A stretch of 64,000 nucleotides of DNA from an uncultured Brevifollis sp. (GCA_964605265.1 CAZSBO010000004.1:488-64487), one strand, 5' to 3'; numbered from the stretch's first letter, positions 1-8,177 are shown. Made by a program: numbers and translations. The notes: a model not told the origin generated them from the letters alone.

Positions 1-2137
1 GGAAATGCAGGGCCTGCAGCGCGGTGACTGAACTGTCGCGCACGGCCGTGCAGGCGTTGGGATCAGCGCCATCAAAGGTCTGCAGGTAGGGCGAGGCGGT
101 CAGGCGCTTGGTCATCTGATAGATGCTGCGCTTGTCGCTGGGGTAGTCCGCCTTGAAGGGATGATGCTGGGTGAAACCCCAGTCCTTCATCGGCGGGAAT
201 GGGAAGGCTTCCTGCGGCGGCGCCAGGTCGAGCCGCCCCCCGAGCAGGAGCAGGGTGTCGCGCAGCGACTCGGCATCGAGGCGCTGACGGTTGAACTTCC
301 AATACAGGGTGTTGTTGGGGTCGGACGCGAGGTTGTCCTCGCTGTCGACAGACGCCATGCGCCAGGTACGCGAAGCGAGAATGCGACGATGCAGGTGCTT
401 GAGGGAACTGCCATGGCGCAGGAAGTCGCTGGCGAGCCAGTCGAGCAGCTCGGGATGGCTGGGCGACTCACCGCGCAGACCGAAGTCGCTGGTCGTGGCC
501 ACCAAACCCCGGCCGAAGTGGCGCTGCCAGACGCGGTTGACGATGACGCGGGCGGTCAGGGGATTGTTCGGATCGGTGATCCACTGCGCCAACTGCAGGC
601 GACCGCTGGTCTTTGCGGCGATCTCGGGTGGAAGGGTTTGCCCGCCGAGGATGTCGGGAAACTTGCGCGACACCTCCGCGCCGGGTCGCTCGGGTTCGCC
701 GCGCAACTGGATTCGGGCGTTGCCGGGACGCCCCTCGCTGACAGCGTAGGCGGTCGGCAGCACCGGCCGCTTTTTCAGATGCGCGGCCAGGGCCTCGCCA
801 GCCTTGCGCACGCGCAGGAGAAGACGGTCGAACGCCTCCTTGCGCTGGCGCTGTTCGGCCAGGGAATCCGTGCGTTCGCGGGCGGCATTGTCGCGCGCCA
901 TGGCCTCACATTCCGCCAGCAGCTTGTCGAGTTCGACCTCGAGACGGGCCGTTTCCTTGGCAAACGGCGCGAGTTTGGCAGCGACTTCCGCCTCCGGCAC
1001 CAGTGGCACCAAGTGGTGCTGGGCCTTGAACAACTCCAGGCCGGGCTGCGGGTAGCGCGTGCTGGCGAAGATGCCATACAGCCCGTAATAATCGCGCATG
1101 CGGATCGGATCGAACTTGTGATCGTGGCAACGCGCGCAGCTCAGGGTCAGACCCATCACCGTGCGACCGAGGTTGTCGAGCGTGTCCTCGATCGTCACAT
1201 GCCAGGGGTAGCGCTCGATGAGGGAACCAAAGCGACGCGACAAGGCGATGTAGCCGGTGGCAACGGTCTGACGGTTTTTCTCGGCCTGATTCGCGGCAGG
1301 CAGCAGGTCGCCGGCGAGTTGCTCGGTGAGAAAGCGGTCGTAGGGCAGGTCCTTGTTGAACGACTCGATGACGTAATCGCGGTACAACCGTGCCTGCGGG
1401 ATCGGGTAGTCGGAGTTGTCGCCAGCGGTGTCGGCATAGCGCACCCAGTCGAGCCAGTGGCGCGCCCAGCGCTCGCCGTAGTGCGGACTGGCGAGCAGGG
1501 TTTCCGTGGCGGCGGCCAGGTCGACACTTGATGTCGCAAGGCCGTAGCGTTCCGGCGGCAGGCCGGTCAGGGCATACGCAAGCCGTCGCACCAGCACCTC
1601 GGGTTCTGCATCGGCAACGGGCGTCAGGCCGGCGGCCTCACGTTTCGCCTGGATGAAATGATCGATGGGGTTGAGCGGCCAGGTTTTGTCGCGCACCTCA
1701 GGGATCGGGGGTTCGGCGACGGGCTGGAAGGCCCAGTGCGTGGAGCTGGGCTGGGTCTCGGCCACCGCGACGGGTTCCTCCGGCCAGGGCGCGCCGGCTG
1801 CAATCCAGTCGCGCAGCAAGGCGATCTGCTGGGGCAACAGGCGCTCGCCCTTCGGCGGCATGCGTTCCGTCTTGTGCGTGGAGGTGATGCGCTGAAGCAG
1901 GCCGCTGCGTTCAGGATCGCCGGGAACCAGAGCGGCCTGGCCCGAATCCGCCTGGACCAAGGCGCCGGACTTGCGGTCGTAGCGCAGGCCGCCGTTTTGT
2001 TCGTCGGGCCCATGGCACTTCAGGCAGTGCGCTTCGAAGATCGGTTGGATGTCGCGGTTGAAATCGGGGGCGGCGTTGAGTGATGTCGCCACGCCGAGGA
2101 GCAGCAGTTGCGGCAAGCCCCAACAGGGGCGCGCCAT
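1..2137 (-). CDS. Planctomycete cytochrome c (PSCyt1) + DUF1549 + DUF1553 domain protein, runs off the left edge
   Basis: Manual translation from ATG 2137 (absent from the ORF track because there is no stop in the window): signal peptide, DFNRDIQPIFEAHCLKCH heme motif, HWAFQP, YGERWARHWLD, CARCHDHKFDP, NPLTARVIVNRVWQRHFGRG. Confidence 0.9.
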   Translation of the reverse strand, partial: MARPCWGLPQLLLLGVATSLNAAPDFNRDIQPIFEAHCLKCHGPDEQNGGLRYDRKSGALVQADSGQAALVPGDPERSGLLQRITSTHKTERMPPKGERLLPQQIALLRDWIAAGAPWPEEPVAVAETQPSSTHWAFQPVAEPPIPEVRDKTWPLNPIDHFIQAKREAAGLTPVADAEPEVLVRRLAYALTGLPPERYGLATSSVDLAAATETLLASPHYGERWARHWLDWVRYADTAGDNSDYPIPQARLYRDYVIESFNKDLPYDRFLTEQLAGDLLPAANQAEKNRQTVATGYIALSRRFGSLIERYPWHVTIEDTLDNLGRTVMGLTLSCARCHDHKFDPIRMRDYYGLYGIFASTRYPQPGLELFKAQHHLVPLVPEAEVAAKLAPFAKETARLEVELDKLLAECEAMARDNAARERTDSLAEQRQRKEAFDRLLLRVRKAGEALAAHLKKRPVLPTAYAVSEGRPGNARIQLRGEPERPGAEVSRKFPDILGGQTLPPEIAAKTSGRLQLAQWITDPNNPLTARVIVNRVWQRHFGRGLVATTSDFGLRGESPSHPELLDWLASDFLRHGSSLKHLHRRILASRTWRMASVDSEDNLASDPNNTLYWKFNRQRLDAESLRDTLLLLGGRLDLAPPQEAFPFPPMKDWGFTQHHPFKADYPSDKRSIYQMTKRLTASPYLQTFDGADPNACTAVRDSSVTALQALHF

Positions 2138-2201
2138 GCCGGCCCATCCGCGACTTGGCGGCCGCCGACCCGACACACGTTGGAGCCACCCTGCGCGCAT
2201 C

Positions 2202-2861
2202 TCAGGCAAAACGTTCGGGGTTGAGGATGCGGCGCTTGCCGGCTTCAAGATGCTCGATCATGAGGCGGGCCGCGTCATCGGCACGACCGGCCAGCAGCGC
2301 GGCGACCAAGGCCTCGTGTTCGGCGGTGGATTCCGCCGGGCGGGCGCGGTCGCTGTCGGTGACCCGCAGGATGACCTGATGAATCTTGTCGCGCAGCCGC
2401 TCCATGGTCGAGAGGATCTCGCGATTGCCCAGATAGCTGGCGAGCAGGTAGTGCATCTGCTCGTCGAGACGCATCAACTCGCGCAGATCGTTTCCCACCA
2501 GGGCACGGCGCTGATGGGCGAGGTTGGCCTGCAGCTCTTCCGCCTGGGCCGGCTTCAGGCGGCCGGCCAAACGGCGTACCACCCAGGATTCGACCGCCTC
2601 ACGCAGCTCATAGTGATCGACGATGTCCTCGACGCTGAGACCGCGCACCACAACGCCCTGCTGGGCGGAGATGGTGACAAAGCCCTCGGCTTCCAGTCGC
2701 TCCAAGGCGACGTGCACCGGCGTTTTCGACATGCCGAGTTGGGCGGCGAGCTGGCGTTCCGAGAGGAAGCTGCCGGGCGGGAATTCGCCCGAGGTGATGA
2801 GACGGCGCAGTTCCGCGTAGGCGCGCGACTGGAGACGAACGGGCGGAGGGGCAGATTTCAT
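2202..2861 (-). CDS. GntR family transcriptional regulator (FCD domain)
   Basis: AYAELRRLITSGEFPPG..LSERQLAAQLGMSKTPVHVAL wHTH, then FCD domain with His residues; ATG 2861 preferred over TTG 2870. Confidence 0.92.
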   Translation of the reverse strand: MKSAPPPVRLQSRAYAELRRLITSGEFPPGSFLSERQLAAQLGMSKTPVHVALERLEAEGFVTISAQQGVVVRGLSVEDIVDHYELREAVESWVVRRLAGRLKPAQAEELQANLAHQRRALVGNDLRELMRLDEQMHYLLASYLGNREILSTMERLRDKIHQVILRVTDSDRARPAESTAEHEALVAALLAGRADDAARLMIEHLEAGKRRILNPERFA

Positions 2862-2868
2862 GGCATGC

Positions 2869-2884
2869 AACTGGCATGCCAGTT
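2869..2884. promoter_or_regulatory. Putative GntR autoregulatory operator
   Basis: Perfect 16-bp palindrome AACTGGCATGCCAGTT plus an adjacent TGGCATGCAA copy, just upstream of the GntR start. Confidence 0.7.
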
Positions 2885-3000
2885 ACGTTGCGGCCTGTCG
2901 CATCTTTCTCACGTTGTCCACGGCTCCCTCCGCCCCTACCCTGCCGCATGTTCGCCGCTGCCCCGCCCTCTGCCCTGCCCGCCGCGCCGGGTGACCTGTC

Positions 3001-4038
3001 ATGAGGCCCTTCCTCATTCTCGGCGGCGGTCTTGCCGGCACGACCCTGGCCTGGCGACTCTGGGAGCGCGGCCAGCCCTTTCTGCTGGTCGACCGCGACG
3101 CGCCGGTGACCGCCTCAAAAATCGCCGCCGGTCTGGTGACGCCCATCACCGGCATGCGGCTCGGTTTGAGCTGGCGTTATGCCCTGCTGCACGCGGAGGC
3201 CGTCGCCTTTTACCGCGGCCTGGAGACACGGCTCGGTCGCACCTTTTACCATGAAACCCCGGTCGTGCGCCTGCTGCGCAGCGAGTGGCAGGCCGGACTC
3301 TGGGCCAAGCGCTGCCATCGCCCGGAGTTTGCCCCCTACCTGCAACCGCCGGTCGAGCCGCTGGTGAATCCGGAGGTCTTTGCCCAGCCCTTTGGCGGCT
3401 TCGAACAGCGCCCCGGCGGCTGGCTCGACACGGCCGCCTACCTGCAGGCCAGTCGCGCCTTTTTCGCAGCGGCCGGCTGCTGGCGCACGGGCGAGGTCGA
3501 GTCGATCGACGAGACACCGGCTACCGTGCGTTGGGGCGACGCTGAGTTTGCCGCCGCCATCTGGTGCACCGGCTGGCAGGCGGCGCAGCGGCCCGAACTG
3601 GCCGACGTGCCCTTTCAATCGGCGCGCGGTAGCATCCTCACCGTGCAGGCCGACACCCGCGGGGAAAGCCGCGTCATCAGCGGCGCCTGCTGGCTGGTGC
3701 CGCGCGGCGACGGCAGCCTGCGCGCCGGCCCGACCTACGAGGTGCCCTTCACCGATCCGCACACGCCCTCGCCGGAAGCGCTGGCCGGGCTGGAACAAAA
3801 GCTGCGCGACCTGTTGCGGGTCGACTTCCGCATCACCGACCGCCAGACCGCCGTGCGACCCATCGTGCGCGGCCGCGAAGCCCTGCTCGGCCGCCTGCCC
3901 GGGCGATCCCGCCAGGCCTGCTTCAGCGGCCTCGCCTCCAAGGGCGTGCTGCGCGCCCCCTGGCTGGCGCAGCATCTGGTCACACACCTGCTCGACGGCG
4001 CCGCCCTCGAGGCGCAAGTCGACCTGGCCGGTCTCTGA
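3001..4038 (+). CDS. FAD-dependent oxidoreductase, DAO/glycine oxidase family
   Basis: ILGGGLAG dinucleotide-binding motif, ASKIAAGLVTP, AVRP, GLASKGVLRAP. Confidence 0.85.
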   Translation: MRPFLILGGGLAGTTLAWRLWERGQPFLLVDRDAPVTASKIAAGLVTPITGMRLGLSWRYALLHAEAVAFYRGLETRLGRTFYHETPVVRLLRSEWQAGLWAKRCHRPEFAPYLQPPVEPLVNPEVFAQPFGGFEQRPGGWLDTAAYLQASRAFFAAAGCWRTGEVESIDETPATVRWGDAEFAAAIWCTGWQAAQRPELADVPFQSARGSILTVQADTRGESRVISGACWLVPRGDGSLRAGPTYEVPFTDPHTPSPEALAGLEQKLRDLLRVDFRITDRQTAVRPIVRGREALLGRLPGRSRQACFSGLASKGVLRAPWLAQHLVTHLLDGAALEAQVDLAGL

Positions 4039-4098
4039 CACAGCCATTCGCGCTGGCAGGCGGGCGAATCCCGCCTATGCAGAAGGCTCGCACCCACC

Positions 4099-4944
4099 AT
4101 GGCCGGCTTTTTCAAATCCCTCCTCCAGCGCTTCACCAAACCCGACATCGATTGGGATGACCTCGAGGCCGCCCTCGTCGCCGGCGACCTCGGCCCGCGC
4201 CTGGCGCTGCGCATTGTCGACGATCTCAAGGCCCAGGGCCGCAAGCTGCACGGGGCCGACATCGTCCAGGTGGCACGCGAGCATGTGAAAACCATCCTGC
4301 CGGCGCAGGTGCCCGCCCTGACCCCACTCGACGGCCGGCCCAAGGTCCTGCTCATCGTCGGCGTCAACGGCACCGGCAAGACCACCTCCACCGCCAAGCT
4401 CGCCAAGCACCTGCACGACCACGGCCAAAAGGTCGTGCTGGCCGCGGCCGACACTTTCCGCGCGGCGGCGGTTGAGCAGTTGGAGGTGTGGTCGCAGCGA
4501 CTCCACATCCCCATGGTCAAGGGCCCGCCCAACGGCGATCCGGCGGCAGTCTGCTTTGAGGCCTACGACCTCGCCTGCCGCACCGGCGCCGACTACCTGC
4601 TCTGCGACACCGCCGGCCGACTGCACACCAAGCACAACCTCATGGAGGAACTGAAAAAAGTGCACCGCATCCTCGGCCGCAAGGACCCCACCTCGCCGCA
4701 CGAGGTGCTGCTCGTGGTCGATGCCACCACCGGCGGCAACGCCCTGCAGCAGGCGCGTGAATTCCACAAGGCCATCCCCCTCACCGGCGTCATCGTCACC
4801 AAGCTCGACGGCAGCGGCAAGGGCGGCGTGCTGGTCGCCATCCAGCAGGAACTCGGCATCCCCACCCGCTTCATCGGCCTCGGCGAAAAAGCCGAGGACT
4901 TCCAGCCCTTTGATCCCGGCCGGTTCGTGGCGGAGTTGCTGTAG
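4099..4944 (+). CDS. ftsY: Signal recognition particle receptor FtsY (short, no acidic domain)
   Basis: GVNGTGKTT, DTFRAAA, DTAGRLH, TKLDGSGKGG SRP-GTPase motifs. Confidence 0.96.
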   Translation: MAGFFKSLLQRFTKPDIDWDDLEAALVAGDLGPRLALRIVDDLKAQGRKLHGADIVQVAREHVKTILPAQVPALTPLDGRPKVLLIVGVNGTGKTTSTAKLAKHLHDHGQKVVLAAADTFRAAAVEQLEVWSQRLHIPMVKGPPNGDPAAVCFEAYDLACRTGADYLLCDTAGRLHTKHNLMEELKKVHRILGRKDPTSPHEVLLVVDATTGGNALQQAREFHKAIPLTGVIVTKLDGSGKGGVLVAIQQELGIPTRFIGLGEKAEDFQPFDPGRFVAELL

Positions 4945-4955
4945 AGGGCGGCGCC

Positions 4956-6083
4956 TCAGGCACCAGCCTTGAGATGCGCCTGGATCAGCAGGCCGGCGAC
5001 GTCGTCAAGGGCTTGGTTGGCGGCTTCGGTACCGGTGTTGGTGCAGGCGATCACGGCGAAGCCCTTCTCTGGAGCCAGCCAGGCGACGCTGCGGTTCATC
5101 GTGTTGCTGCCTGCGTGATTGAGCACCCTGCCGCCCCAGGGACGCTCGACCGCAATCCAACCGTAAGCGTAGTTTTCCCCGGGCTGGGTGGCGGTGTGCA
5201 AGCGCTGGTAGGCGGCAGCGGTTTTCAACAGCCGGCCCCGGCCCGCGCGACCCGCCAGGTGCTCGGCCACGAAGAGCCCCCAATCCGTCAGACTCATGTG
5301 CACCGTGCCGGCGGGGCCGAGCACGGCGGGATTGTCCACCAAGGGTCCGTTCTGCGGCATCGGCTCGCCCTTGCCATTGTGCGGCCAGGGCTGGTCGATC
5401 CTGTTCGGCTTGCCAGTGCCGCCAAAACCCGCGTTCTGAATGCCCAGCGGAGCGAACAAGCGCCGGCGCATGAGATCCTCCCAGGAGGCATTCCACACCT
5501 CCTCCAGCATGTGTCCGGCGAGGGCATAACCGAAGTTTGAATACTCGTGCTTTTGCCCGGGCGCAGGCAGATTCGGCGTGCGGGCAGCCAGTTCGAGGGC
5601 GGCTTCGCGCTGGTCCTGCACTTTGCCACCGCCGAGCATGAGCGTGCCCCAGGGAGCATTGGCGGGCAGGCCGGACCAATGGCTGAGCAGATGGGTGAGG
5701 GTGGCTTGGGCAAGCGGCGATTTTTTCAGGTCTCTCTGCCGGGGGAAGACCTCGCCGAGGGTGCTGTCCCAACGCAGTTTTCCCTCCTCCACCGCGATGG
5801 CGGCGAGGGTGGCTGTCATCGCCTTGGTGTTGGAACCCAGGTGCCACAGGTCCTCGGGCGTCACGGGCGGCTTGTCGCCCTTCTTGCGCACCCCGGTCAC
5901 CGCCAGGCTTTGACAGCCCTGCGGAGTGACGATGGCCGCCCCGAGTCCCGGCAAACCCTGCTGGGAACGGATGGCCTCCAGCCTGTCCTTCCATGCCGGG
6001 CTTGCATTGAGCGCTGAGGAGCGACGGGCCAGAAAGATGCCAGCGCTGGTGACAAGGAAGTGACGGCGGGTCAGCAAGCTCAT
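4956..6083 (-). CDS. Serine hydrolase, beta-lactamase family, Tat-exported
   Basis: LTRRHFL Tat-like signal; SNTK (SxxK), YSN and HAG motifs. Confidence 0.88.
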   Translation of the reverse strand: MSLLTRRHFLVTSAGIFLARRSSALNASPAWKDRLEAIRSQQGLPGLGAAIVTPQGCQSLAVTGVRKKGDKPPVTPEDLWHLGSNTKAMTATLAAIAVEEGKLRWDSTLGEVFPRQRDLKKSPLAQATLTHLLSHWSGLPANAPWGTLMLGGGKVQDQREAALELAARTPNLPAPGQKHEYSNFGYALAGHMLEEVWNASWEDLMRRRLFAPLGIQNAGFGGTGKPNRIDQPWPHNGKGEPMPQNGPLVDNPAVLGPAGTVHMSLTDWGLFVAEHLAGRAGRGRLLKTAAAYQRLHTATQPGENYAYGWIAVERPWGGRVLNHAGSNTMNRSVAWLAPEKGFAVIACTNTGTEAANQALDDVAGLLIQAHLKAGA

Positions 6084-6130: not shown

Positions 6131-6364
6131 TCACTCCACCAGCACGAACATCGCGGCGAAGGTGTTGGTCGGGCGCTCGGCCGCATCGGCGGGCAGGCGG
6201 GTGGAGCGATCCATCATTTCAGAGATGTCCCCGTCCAGATAAAGCGCGTCGCGACAGCCGAGATGCAGGAAAAAGCGACTGAGCTGATGGAAGGTGACAC
6301 GGCCCTTCACGCGATCCTCGCGGTCGCTCATGACAAAGACGATCTCCATCACTGCCCCGGCTTT
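6131..6364 (-). pseudogene. C-terminal remnant of a phosphodiester glycosidase (YigE/NAGPA-like) protein
   Basis: IVFVMSD...VTFHQLSRFFLHLGCRDALYLDGDIS resembles the family C-terminus; in-frame stop at 6365-6367 and no N-terminal two-thirds. Confidence 0.6.
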
Positions 6365-6400
6365 TCACGGGTGGATTCGAAGCAGCACATTGATGGCATC

Positions 6401-6580
6401 TCATTTCCGCAACGCACCGCCGCGCTGGACATTCCTGTAATCTCTAGCCATCATCACGACCTGGGAGAGTGCAATGAAGATGAGAAGCCAGGGGTTCTTT
6501 GAGTGATAGGCTTGGTAAACAGCCAGACCACTTGCAACAAGAATGAAGAAGACTCGGGCTTTGAAAAACTTAATTTTCAT
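6401..6580 (-). CDS. Small basic two-TM membrane protein (59 aa), candidate immunity protein
   Basis: Manual translation MKIKFFKARVFFILVASGLAVYQAYHSKNPWLLIFIALSQVVMMARDYRNVQRGGALRK*; begins 16 nt after the upstream stop; low GC; below the ORF-track length cutoff. Confidence 0.65.
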   Translation of the reverse strand: MKIKFFKARVFFILVASGLAVYQAYHSKNPWLLIFIALSQVVMMARDYRNVQRGGALRK

Positions 6581-6596
6581 GGTTGTTGATTCAACA

Positions 6597-7949
6597 TTAT
6601 GGCAAAGGGGTTATTCCAATCTCATCTCCATAATTATAACCCCATATCACTCCACCGACAATAAGACATACCAATCCCACAACCCCACCTCCCGCTATGC
6701 AACTACCCACAAGCACCCCTAATTCGATCCCAGCTATAATTGCATCCTCGTTACTTTCAAAACCGAATATAGCATCTTCCACCTCCTGTTCAGATTGCTC
6801 CAACTCATAGCTGATCGATTCCTCATTCGAGGCCTCCTCCACCTCTAAAAATCCATTGTCACCATCAGTTTCAGGATCGGTATTCCAGTCATCCGCCACC
6901 CACGGGTCTGTCCCGTTTTGGAATTCGGCGAGGTTGTCGTAACCGTCGCCGTCCGGGTCTTGTGAGGCGTCGCTGGAATCGTCCGGATTGAGCCCGTAGG
7001 AGGTTTCCCAGACATCGGTCATGCCATCGCCATCGCGGTCGTAGTTCTGCGGAATGTTGGCGTCCAGGCTCCAACCCTGGTGGTAGGCGTCCAGATTGCA
7101 AACACTGTCGCCGTCAAGATCGCCATAGAGGTCGTCATTGGCGTCATAAGGATCCATTCCATAATAGGACTCAATGCGGTCAGGGATGCCGCCACCGTCG
7201 CTGTCGGTCAGGTCCACCACGTACCAGTCCGTGAACTGGCCGCTGAGACTGTGGGGATTGTTGGGATCGGTGGAATAGATGTAAAGCTCCTCACCATCGG
7301 TCAAACCATCGCCGTCGCTGTCCACGCTGTAGGGGTCGGTTCCATCGCTGGTCTCAGCCCAGTCGGACACGCCATCGCCGTCGGAGTCAGGCTCCGTCAC
7401 GGGATAGTAGTGATCATCGTAGTCACTGCGGCCATTGCCGTCCGTGTCCCAGTTGATGGGATCCGTGAAGGACACGTTGGCCTCAAAGTCATCGCTGAGG
7501 CCGTCGCCATCGCTGTCCTGGGGCGTTGTGTCCGAGTTGGTCGCCCCGGCTTCCTCCTCGGTGATGCCAGGATTCTCTTCGGGAGGATTGGCGGCATAGA
7601 AGTCGGCCAAATCACTCTGGCCATTGCCATCCGTATCCCAGTTCAGTGGGTCGGTCCCGGTCGTGAAGACTTCGTCGCCATCGTTGATGCCGTCGGAATC
7701 GGTGTCGTAGAGGTATGGGTCGGTGCCGAGCCAGAGTTCATACCAGTTCGGCAGGCCGTCGAGGTCCGGGTCACCCCCATCAGGTCCGTTCTCGGGTTCG
7801 GGATCGGCCGACTGCCACACGGGCTGGAGGGAGGCATCCGGGACGTAGTGCGCTTGCAGGGTGTTGCCGCCGATGAAGCAGATGAAGGCCAGCAGTTGCA
7901 GGGTGTGGCCGACGTGATTCCAATGTTTACCGATGTGTCGTAGTGACAT
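6597..7949 (-). CDS. Secreted thrombospondin-type-3-like (DxDxDG) Ca-binding repeat protein with hydrophobic Gly-rich C-terminal tip
   Basis: N-terminal signal-like segment; many D[ST]DxDGxxD...GTDP repeats; acidic linker; C-terminal IIAGIELGVLVGSCIAGGGVVGLVCLIVGGVIWG. Confidence 0.85.
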   Translation of the reverse strand: MSLRHIGKHWNHVGHTLQLLAFICFIGGNTLQAHYVPDASLQPVWQSADPEPENGPDGGDPDLDGLPNWYELWLGTDPYLYDTDSDGINDGDEVFTTGTDPLNWDTDGNGQSDLADFYAANPPEENPGITEEEAGATNSDTTPQDSDGDGLSDDFEANVSFTDPINWDTDGNGRSDYDDHYYPVTEPDSDGDGVSDWAETSDGTDPYSVDSDGDGLTDGEELYIYSTDPNNPHSLSGQFTDWYVVDLTDSDGGGIPDRIESYYGMDPYDANDDLYGDLDGDSVCNLDAYHQGWSLDANIPQNYDRDGDGMTDVWETSYGLNPDDSSDASQDPDGDGYDNLAEFQNGTDPWVADDWNTDPETDGDNGFLEVEEASNEESISYELEQSEQEVEDAIFGFESNEDAIIAGIELGVLVGSCIAGGGVVGLVCLIVGGVIWGYNYGDEIGITPLP

Positions 7950-8177
7950 GGCGTCGAAAAATTGAAGGTGAATCTCTGGGAATTATTTCAAGAGATTCAC
8001 TACACAAAGCGAAAAAGATTCCGCAATTCAATCATTTTCTTCACGCGTTATCTGATCATCGCATGTTTATAGACCCTAGGCCAAACACTTGCTGTGCAGA
8101 CGCGTTTTGCCGAACTTCTGTGCCCACCTCTGGTGGCACACCTCAAGCGTTCCTCCTCATCGCCCAAAACCGCCTCC

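Follow-up and report, generated by a model that had tools for sequence, protein, structure and literature searches.

The gene pair in the window

In the genome of an uncultured Brevifollis sp., a stretch of 64,000 nt (the window, to whose positions all coordinates refer unless a contig or locus is named) carries a gene of 450 codons closely followed by a very small ORF, and the question raised by this locus is what such a pair does. An earlier note had read it as a polymorphic toxin-immunity system, i.e. a conserved carrier with an exchangeable C-terminal toxin and an adjacent immunity gene. By examining the pair, its relatives and the rest of the genome (G000, 88% complete), we found the following features, all on the minus strand:

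6346..8167, minus strand: whole inserted cassette (upstream region, trunk-tip gene and partner gene), absent in G011 (L152)
7950..8167, minus strand: AT-rich upstream region of low GC, presumed promoter, common to L103
7851..7949, minus strand: signal-like peptide, aa 1-33, family-specific, with basic/Trp/His n-region, hydrophobic core and AxA-like end
6891..7850, minus strand: constant trunk, aa 34-353, with TSP3_bac (PF18884) DxDxDG repeats, predicted Ca-binding carrier
6900..7241, minus strand: most conserved core module of about 110 aa, aa 237-350, where invariant columns cluster, with GTDPW at its end
6753..6890, minus strand: acidic spacer, first part of the exchangeable tip (exchange point about 6892)
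6597..6752, minus strand: hydrophobic two-helix hairpin with acidic/Pro tail (tip type A), putative toxin, also on two other trunks
6596..6661, minus strand: two promoter-like sites (6661-6633 and 6625-6596) in the 3' end of the tip, facing the 59-aa gene, from a consensus scan only
6401..6580, minus strand: basic membrane protein of 59 aa with two helices, the putative immunity protein cognate to the tip, with an orphan homolog in L103
6131..6345, minus strand: what remains of a phosphodiester glycosidase (NAGPA) gene, its 3' third, PF09992 positions 103-165 only; flank, outside the system

The sole Pfam family in the protein encoded at 6597-7949 (-) was TSP3_bac, found in six stretches (E 2e-18, 66 bits against a cut-off of 25); together with seven strict DxDxDG motifs, this bears out the TSP3-like repeats described earlier, and the motif points to calcium binding by the trunk. 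The signal peptide was judged from the sequence and a custom HMM built from 22 family N-termini, which at E<=6e-6 matched four out of 34,808 six-frame ORFs in G000. All four were TSP3 proteins, two of them being matches by construction, and the next match came at E 0.65. An ORF of 287 aa on the plus strand (7080-7943) was discarded, as we took it for an antisense shadow of the repeats.

Composition changes sharply along the gene, with a GC content of 60.2% in the trunk, 44.9% in the tip and 47.2% in the 59-aa ORF (genome 66.7%), and a GC3 of 74.5% in the trunk versus 39.8% in the tip; the GC values once counted by hand proved exact (61.7% at 6901-6960, 38.3% at 6721-6780 and 43.3% at 6601-6660). 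The spacer has D or E at 17 of its 46 residues, and the hydrophobic stretch that follows is devoid of K and R. An AlphaFold model of the 450-aa protein placed helices at 401-417 and 424-439, with low confidence (mean pLDDT 58, tip under 50), and a Foldseek search of the PDB with this model gave no match at E<=0.001.

Beginning 16 nt downstream, the ORF at 6401-6580 (-) is indeed of low GC, basic and preceded by the gap reported for it; of its two proposed transmembrane helices, the second is clearer than the first (hydropathy peaks 2.3 and 1.7). Its length proves little alone, since 9.6% of 5000 shuffles of the sequence yielded an ORF of at least 59 codons. We nevertheless regard it as a real gene, because a 65%-identical homolog with the same start was found in another strain. 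Five promoter-like sites were found in the region where 1.2 ± 1.0 were expected, a consensus-scan result that serves as a lead. A near-palindrome, CGGA-x-ATAAT-x-CCGA, occurs about 45 nt upstream of the starts of short-family genes in L104, L105, L071, L072 and L106 and, in weaker form, near 7985-8000 in the window, possibly as a regulator site or -10 element.

Insertion sites of the cassette

The cassette is flanked by xylulokinase, the NAGPA remnant and a beta-lactamase-family gene. An empty site was found in G011 (L152), where xylulokinase is followed by an intact NAGPA gene and then the beta-lactamase-family gene. Flanks align between the two up to 6345 and from 8168, so that 6346-8167 in the window stands for approximately 585 nt of G011, including the 5' part of NAGPA. 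The NAGPA frame of G011 is 259 aa long and 99% identical over the window remnant; most members of the genus also have an intact gene, and G000 yielded no intact ortholog. The cassette is an insertion that truncated the NAGPA gene.

Other cassettes occupy other sites, e.g. beside trpS (recognized by eye) in L104, together with a duplicated trpS fragment. This fragment, internal to the adjoining trpS-like gene, lies at 4376-4570 in L104 between two tandem cassettes, which suggests repeated insertion or duplication at that gene. In L105, 130-nt inverted repeats of 96% identity (168-296 and 2238-2367) flank a trunk and partner cassette and are possibly the ends of a mobile unit. Close members of the 450-aa family are rare: strong N-terminal matches (E<=2.5e-44) occurred in 5 out of 145 family genomes, and matches at E<=1e-14 in 28.

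Tips are exchanged on a constant trunk

After scoring 8000 candidates, at least 18 close-family proteins were found among the 120 matches listed of 220 at E<=1e-20. Tips were compared in 20 rows, namely 17 of these proteins, the window protein and two locus proteins; P0013, which ends ahead of the tip, was left out. Trunk identity is 80% or more in 20 pairs; in 17 of these the tips are just 11-30% identical, including one pair (P0015/P0016) still detectably homologous in the tip, and the remaining three have a tip or spacer in common (43-88%). Even near-identical trunks (88-99%) bear dissimilar tips. In the window protein's own clade (trunks 88-97% identical) there are four different tips, each starting after GTDPWVA[D/E]; the GTDPW that closes the core module sits directly ahead of the exchange point. 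A given tip type can in turn be found in more than one trunk clade, on trunks just 66-71% identical.

The exchange can be followed in DNA. The trunk in L103 is 95% identical to that of the window protein over aa 1-353, and the DNA is 93% identical up to window position 6892 and divergent beyond it. In two studies, single contigs (X1 and X3) span the locus with the same flanks, leave the window sequence at 6892 and return to it at 6347 after approximately 2,760 letters of other sequence; run X5, in which short stretches spanning the junction are identical to the window and which is a possible source of it, was not counted. The constant signal and TSP3 trunk thus acquires exchangeable tips by recombination directly after the last repeat. 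The test set out in the earlier note, a trunk common to homologs with dissimilar C-termini, each followed by a different small ORF, came out in its favor, and these dissimilar tips also exclude its refuting case, the same C-terminal anchor in all homologs.

Tip type A, that of the window protein, was found also on P0002 (E 4e-15) and on P0122 (E 3e-9), a differently built TSP3 protein of 313 aa. Five other matches to it turned up among 1.84 billion representatives, of which P0123, P0124 and P0127 are unrelated repeat proteins. Across its three trunks the motifs IELxxL and VGxxCxxxGxVxWG are kept and the turn between them is variable. The succession of acidic spacer and hydrophobic stretch was correctly seen in this tip, but the Gly-zipper does not hold as a conserved feature: its motif occurs in only 7 of the 20 tips, and neither the GGG turn nor the first Cys is kept in the two type-A homologs. 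Twelve out of 20 tips are strongly hydrophobic and eight are not, and P0012 has a charged region at its C-terminus. In place of the nucleases and deaminases that the earlier note had named among possible alternative tips, the short family mostly carries other hydrophobic hairpins.

No tip or partner of the short family scored over the cut-off in Pfam or NCBIfam, and no recognized toxin domain was found in its tips. A PDB sequence search with the window tip gave no meaningful match, and the ESM Atlas returned only leads below the 0.9 threshold, to Gly-zipper clusters (0.77-0.78). Proteins of approximately 450-530 aa matching residues 292-351 of the query (e.g. in G000:C33) were rejected as relatives, as the N-terminus is unrelated and only the last repeat is in common.

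Partner genes and orphans

Nine loci had a complete tip and downstream DNA: the window, L103, two in L104, L105, L071, L204, L205 and L206 (L069 and L070, near-copies of L104, were left out). In all nine a dedicated ORF lies within -4 to +46 nt of the tip. Eight of the partners are basic hydrophobic proteins of 59-133 aa; the ninth is a soluble protein of 179 aa with a lipoprotein-like start (by eye), and its tip is among the least hydrophobic. Where two loci have the same tip, as in two pairs, the partner family is the same as well, even on different trunks (E 1e-29 in one pair; E 0.008, weak, reciprocal best, in the other). Used as queries in protein searches, the 59-aa ORF and the 179-aa partner returned self-matches only, by a word-based method that is weak for short proteins.

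Behind the cognate partners there were eight extra ORFs, six of which match the partner of another tip (E 8e-5 to 1e-19, where the best match among 2187 hydrophobic background ORFs had E 0.019); two match nothing. Downstream proteins of this kind measure 96 aa in L103, 63 and 64 aa in L104 and 131 aa in L204. One orphan, at 11072-11168 in L103 and cut by the end of that locus, is a homolog of the 59-aa ORF itself (72.7% identical in nucleotides, 65% in amino acids; E 5e-7 against the same 2187 background ORFs), so that the partner of the window tip has been retained in a strain whose own tip is different. In X1 and X3, the replaced segment includes 21 nt that match the 59-aa gene exactly. A tip comes together with a downstream gene of its own, and earlier or foreign partner genes persist behind it as orphans. 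In section 41 of Zhang 2012 (PMC3482391), rows of leftover immunity genes are described as what successive replacements of the tip leave behind. Stand-alone orphan tip cassettes were found in none of L103, L104, L204 and L205, and no other tip type was found in the 88% complete G000.

Long relatives and the shared carrier

Long relatives of 550-4,200 aa have the core module at 36-60% identity. It was present in 20 out of 20 and in 17 out of 17 of them (the 17 recovered from 20 loci), counts that carry the selection by likeness to the query through which long relatives were sampled. Many share the distinctive N-terminus described by the signal HMM, and most have a C-terminal domain of lower GC with another ORF close behind. 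Rhs repeats were found in 5 out of 19 TSP3-headed relatives, and also in L216 and L217. In L216, an Rhs protein of 2768 aa matches the window trunk over its N-terminal 590 aa (47% and 53%, E 5e-45 each), and the Rhs gene is followed by a T6SS_Tdi1_C immunity gene (over cut-off). In L229, a more distant relative (core 37%) to which the signal HMM gave no match, PT-HINT and Tox-SHH domains are followed by SMI1_KNR4 (SUKH), all over cut-off. The signal and trunk of the window protein are also the head of predicted Rhs toxins in Verrucomicrobiaceae.

Known families are scarce beyond these cases, most sampled tips matching none. Of 25 C-terminal pieces taken from TSP3 relatives, only one had a known toxin family over cut-off, and known immunity families were found in only two out of 22 genes downstream of long relatives. 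By eye, we take the tips of L154 and L156 to be ART-like, that of L162 papain-like and those of L171 and L216 nuclease-like; none of these five labels was confirmed by Pfam or NCBIfam. The L154 tip gave an ESM Atlas lead to a Tse2-type ADP-ribosyltransferase cluster (0.85, under the 0.9 threshold), and PDB sequence searches with the L154 and L156 tips gave nothing meaningful.

The relatives are diverse in architecture. Many long ones have Ig repeats and large signal-bearing partners. In L165 (1949-9406), L164 and L166, a TSP3 trunk gene with a short Cys motif at its end is followed by a separate Rhs gene, i.e. a split carrier and Rhs arrangement. Miniature carriers of 188-313 aa with one or two TSP3 repeats occur in L204, L205, L206 and P0122; their tip types and partner families are the same as in the 450-aa family, and the core is absent by eye. 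A further TSP3 subfamily (L074-L077, P0019-P0022) has close trunks, different soluble tips and signal-bearing downstream genes.

Other loci in the same genome

Further TSP3 and Rhs genes were found in G000. A second polymorphic TSP3 gene at 15-3674 (-) in G000:C175 (L208) has a frame of 1220 codons with Cys-rich repeats and a beta-rich tip of low GC; its protein is 92% identical to those of L110 and L111 for about 900 aa and then different, and the contig ends directly after the gene. Two paralogous TSP3-headed genes with the family signal, at 1275-3059 (+) in G000:C250 and 2-1777 (-) in G000:C7, are both cut by contig ends; their relatives (L210-L212) are 2,000-2,500 aa long with variable C-termini. 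At 919-2357 (-) in G000:C180 (L207), at a contig end, an Rhs tail that combines a hydrophobic Gly/Ala stretch with a YwqJ deaminase is followed by a SUKH-3 immunity gene. This tail is not linked to a TSP3 head in the present assembly, and comparison of its hydrophobic stretch with tip B, as a candidate relative, gave no likeness. A frame of 1656 codons at 163-5130 (+) in G000:C196 (L209) encodes an Rhs protein with a Gly/Ala-rich end and no TSP3 head. The genome has four secretins, of type II type. VipA had no match in G000, which at 88% completeness leaves the absence of a T6SS unproven.

Interpretation and alternatives

Taken together, the locus is likely a polymorphic antibacterial toxin-immunity cassette of Prosthecobacter-type Verrucomicrobiaceae. 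Tip exchange, arrays of orphan partners and fusions of the trunk to Rhs, and of the core module to HINT-nuclease toxins, next to recognized immunity genes all support this interpretation, which was that of the earlier note. As far as gene organization can tell, the cassette appears to behave as a polymorphic toxin system, with the genetic hallmarks of such systems found here, orphan tip cassettes excepted. That the tip and its 59-aa partner form a toxin-immunity pair seems quite likely. The hairpin tips are probably membrane-acting, a reading suggested by the 12 strongly hydrophobic tips out of 20, by the membrane partners that accompany hydrophobic tips and by analogy to CDI ionophores. Whether the tip is specifically a pore or ionophore is an evenly balanced matter.

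The mechanism could be as follows. The 450-aa protein would be exported through Sec and then cross the outer membrane; no processing protease, receptor-binding domain or dedicated exporter was found in the cassette. Outside the cell the acidic repeats would fold on Ca2+, keeping the tip soluble or displayed. The hydrophobic hairpin could then enter the inner membrane of related non-kin cells and, as an ionophore or an oligomeric pore, dissipate their membrane potential, and in the inner membrane the small basic two-helix protein would block the cognate hairpin, much as CdiI proteins do with CDI ionophores.

A broader and rather doubtful proposal is that the signal and TSP3 core constitute a cargo tag of an undescribed Verrucomicrobiaceae route without T6SS or two-partner exporter, and that the hairpin tips are a new minimal class of pore toxins. 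If true, the payloads of such a route would range from membrane hairpins of about 40 aa to Rhs proteins of 4,200 aa, with many cognate immunity families. The proposal is weakened because miniature carriers with the same tip types have one or two repeats and, by eye, no core.

An alternative with the toxin part in common with our best explanation is that the hairpin obstructs a single essential protein of the membrane, be it a translocon, a transporter or an envelope-assembly factor, and is sequestered by its partner. The tip is short, keeps IELxxL...VGxxCxxxGxVxWG across three trunks and has no conserved Gly-zipper, all of which would suit a protein target, as would the specific membrane receptors required by CDI ionophores according to PMC11630599. 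We consider this unlikely, however, as many dissimilar hairpins are found on one trunk, and shared action on the bilayer would explain these more easily than many targets.

The pair could also serve in non-lethal kin recognition or signaling, the secreted tip being an identity tag for the cognate membrane partner and orphans widening the set recognized as self, for which Proteus Ids offers a parallel. Strict pairing of tip and partner, with orphans, suits identity systems too, most tips are without a toxin-family match, Ig repeats and large signal-bearing partners occur in many long relatives, and the repeats bear a weak likeness, far below cut-off, to MtsD and CglD, cohesion proteins of myxobacteria. 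Yet the same carrier heads Rhs and HINT-nuclease proteins with classic immunity genes, the partners have no signaling domain and the genome also has the Rhs deaminase and SUKH-3 pair, which makes a purely non-lethal role quite improbable. Very improbable, finally, is a surface Ca-binding or adhesion protein with a variable C-terminal membrane anchor and a small gene for an insertion chaperone or passenger, a reading that draws on the hydrophobic C-terminus, the signal peptide and the commonness of TSP3 repeats in surface proteins but leaves exchange at a fixed codon, co-exchange of partners and retention of partners without their tips unexplained, and which fits neither a tip without a basic stop-transfer tail (0 K/R) nor the several tips that are not anchor-like.

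If the toxin-immunity reading is confirmed, the cassette would represent a lineage-specific weapon family for Verrucomicrobiaceae, which are common in fresh water, sludge and algal phycospheres, and TSP3 calcium repeats would join the toxin carrier domains as a marker for mining new toxins. It would also raise the question of how a Sec-type protein gets to the inner membrane of a neighbor with no known injection system or two-partner system to carry it. The short members lend themselves unusually well to testing, with a hairpin of about 40 aa, a partner of 59-133 aa and natural cognate, non-cognate and orphan combinations.

Comparison with known systems

By the features tested, the system is not a CDI, Rhs, Cdz or T6SS effector system. 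A T6SS effector would have a T6SS leader domain where the window protein has its signal-like N-terminus. CDI ionophores and CdiI are alike in having a polymorphic membrane-acting C-terminus and small, highly divergent, cognate-specific two-helix immunity proteins, the latter being hairpins of 72-100 aa (Halvorsen et al. 2024, PMC11630599). When compared by architecture, however, the window system has no CdiB, filamentous haemagglutinin repeats or VENN, and whereas the CDI toxin consists of an entry domain and a five-helix bundle (PMC11630599), the window tip is a smaller two-helix hairpin of about 40 aa.

Rhs/YD-repeat toxins are linked to the system by the signal and TSP3 trunk, which head Rhs proteins in the window protein's own family, and the Rhs tail of L207 has a Gly/Ala hydrophobic stretch ahead of its deaminase. 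Unlike Rhs toxins, the window protein has neither RHS/YD repeats nor a DPxG-ended core, its tip being fused directly to the trunk. Caulobacter CdzC/CdzD with CdzI (PMC5380434) share a hydrophobic Gly-rich killer, a small transmembrane immunity protein and an aquatic host. Cdz, however, consists of two peptides and has a type I exporter of its own, whereas the window has one large Sec-type protein, no type I secretion genes in the cassette and a glycine zipper that is not conserved among tips. Tox-WTIP (Zhang 2012, section 36) is likewise a small two-helix hydrophobic C-terminal toxin and predicted pore on polymorphic carriers; compared with that section's description, the window tip lacks the RxxR and W-TIP signatures, has no K or R and has no Pfam match.

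Open full-text literature, with subscription journals outside the scope, yielded no description of TSP3-repeat carriers or of such a Prosthecobacter system. In the first 300,000 of the 357,715 characters of Zhang 2012 (PMC3482391), "tsp" and "thrombospondin" occur 0 times; its Additional File 1 could list the architecture. Among the systems that Zhang 2012 treats (sections 37 and 41), the Sec/T2SS-type toxins with MafB-N (Neisseria) or Microscilla-N are alike in their signal and lineage-restricted N-region, variable C-terminus, toxin-immunity gene order and strings of leftover immunity genes. The window system differs from them, as there described, in that the carrier is TSP3_bac, a MafA-like gene is lacking upstream, orphan tip cassettes were not found and hairpins take the place of enzymes as tips. 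Known, then, is the logic of polymorphic toxins and their immunity genes, and what appears to be new is the lineage-specific calcium-repeat carrier on which it would operate.
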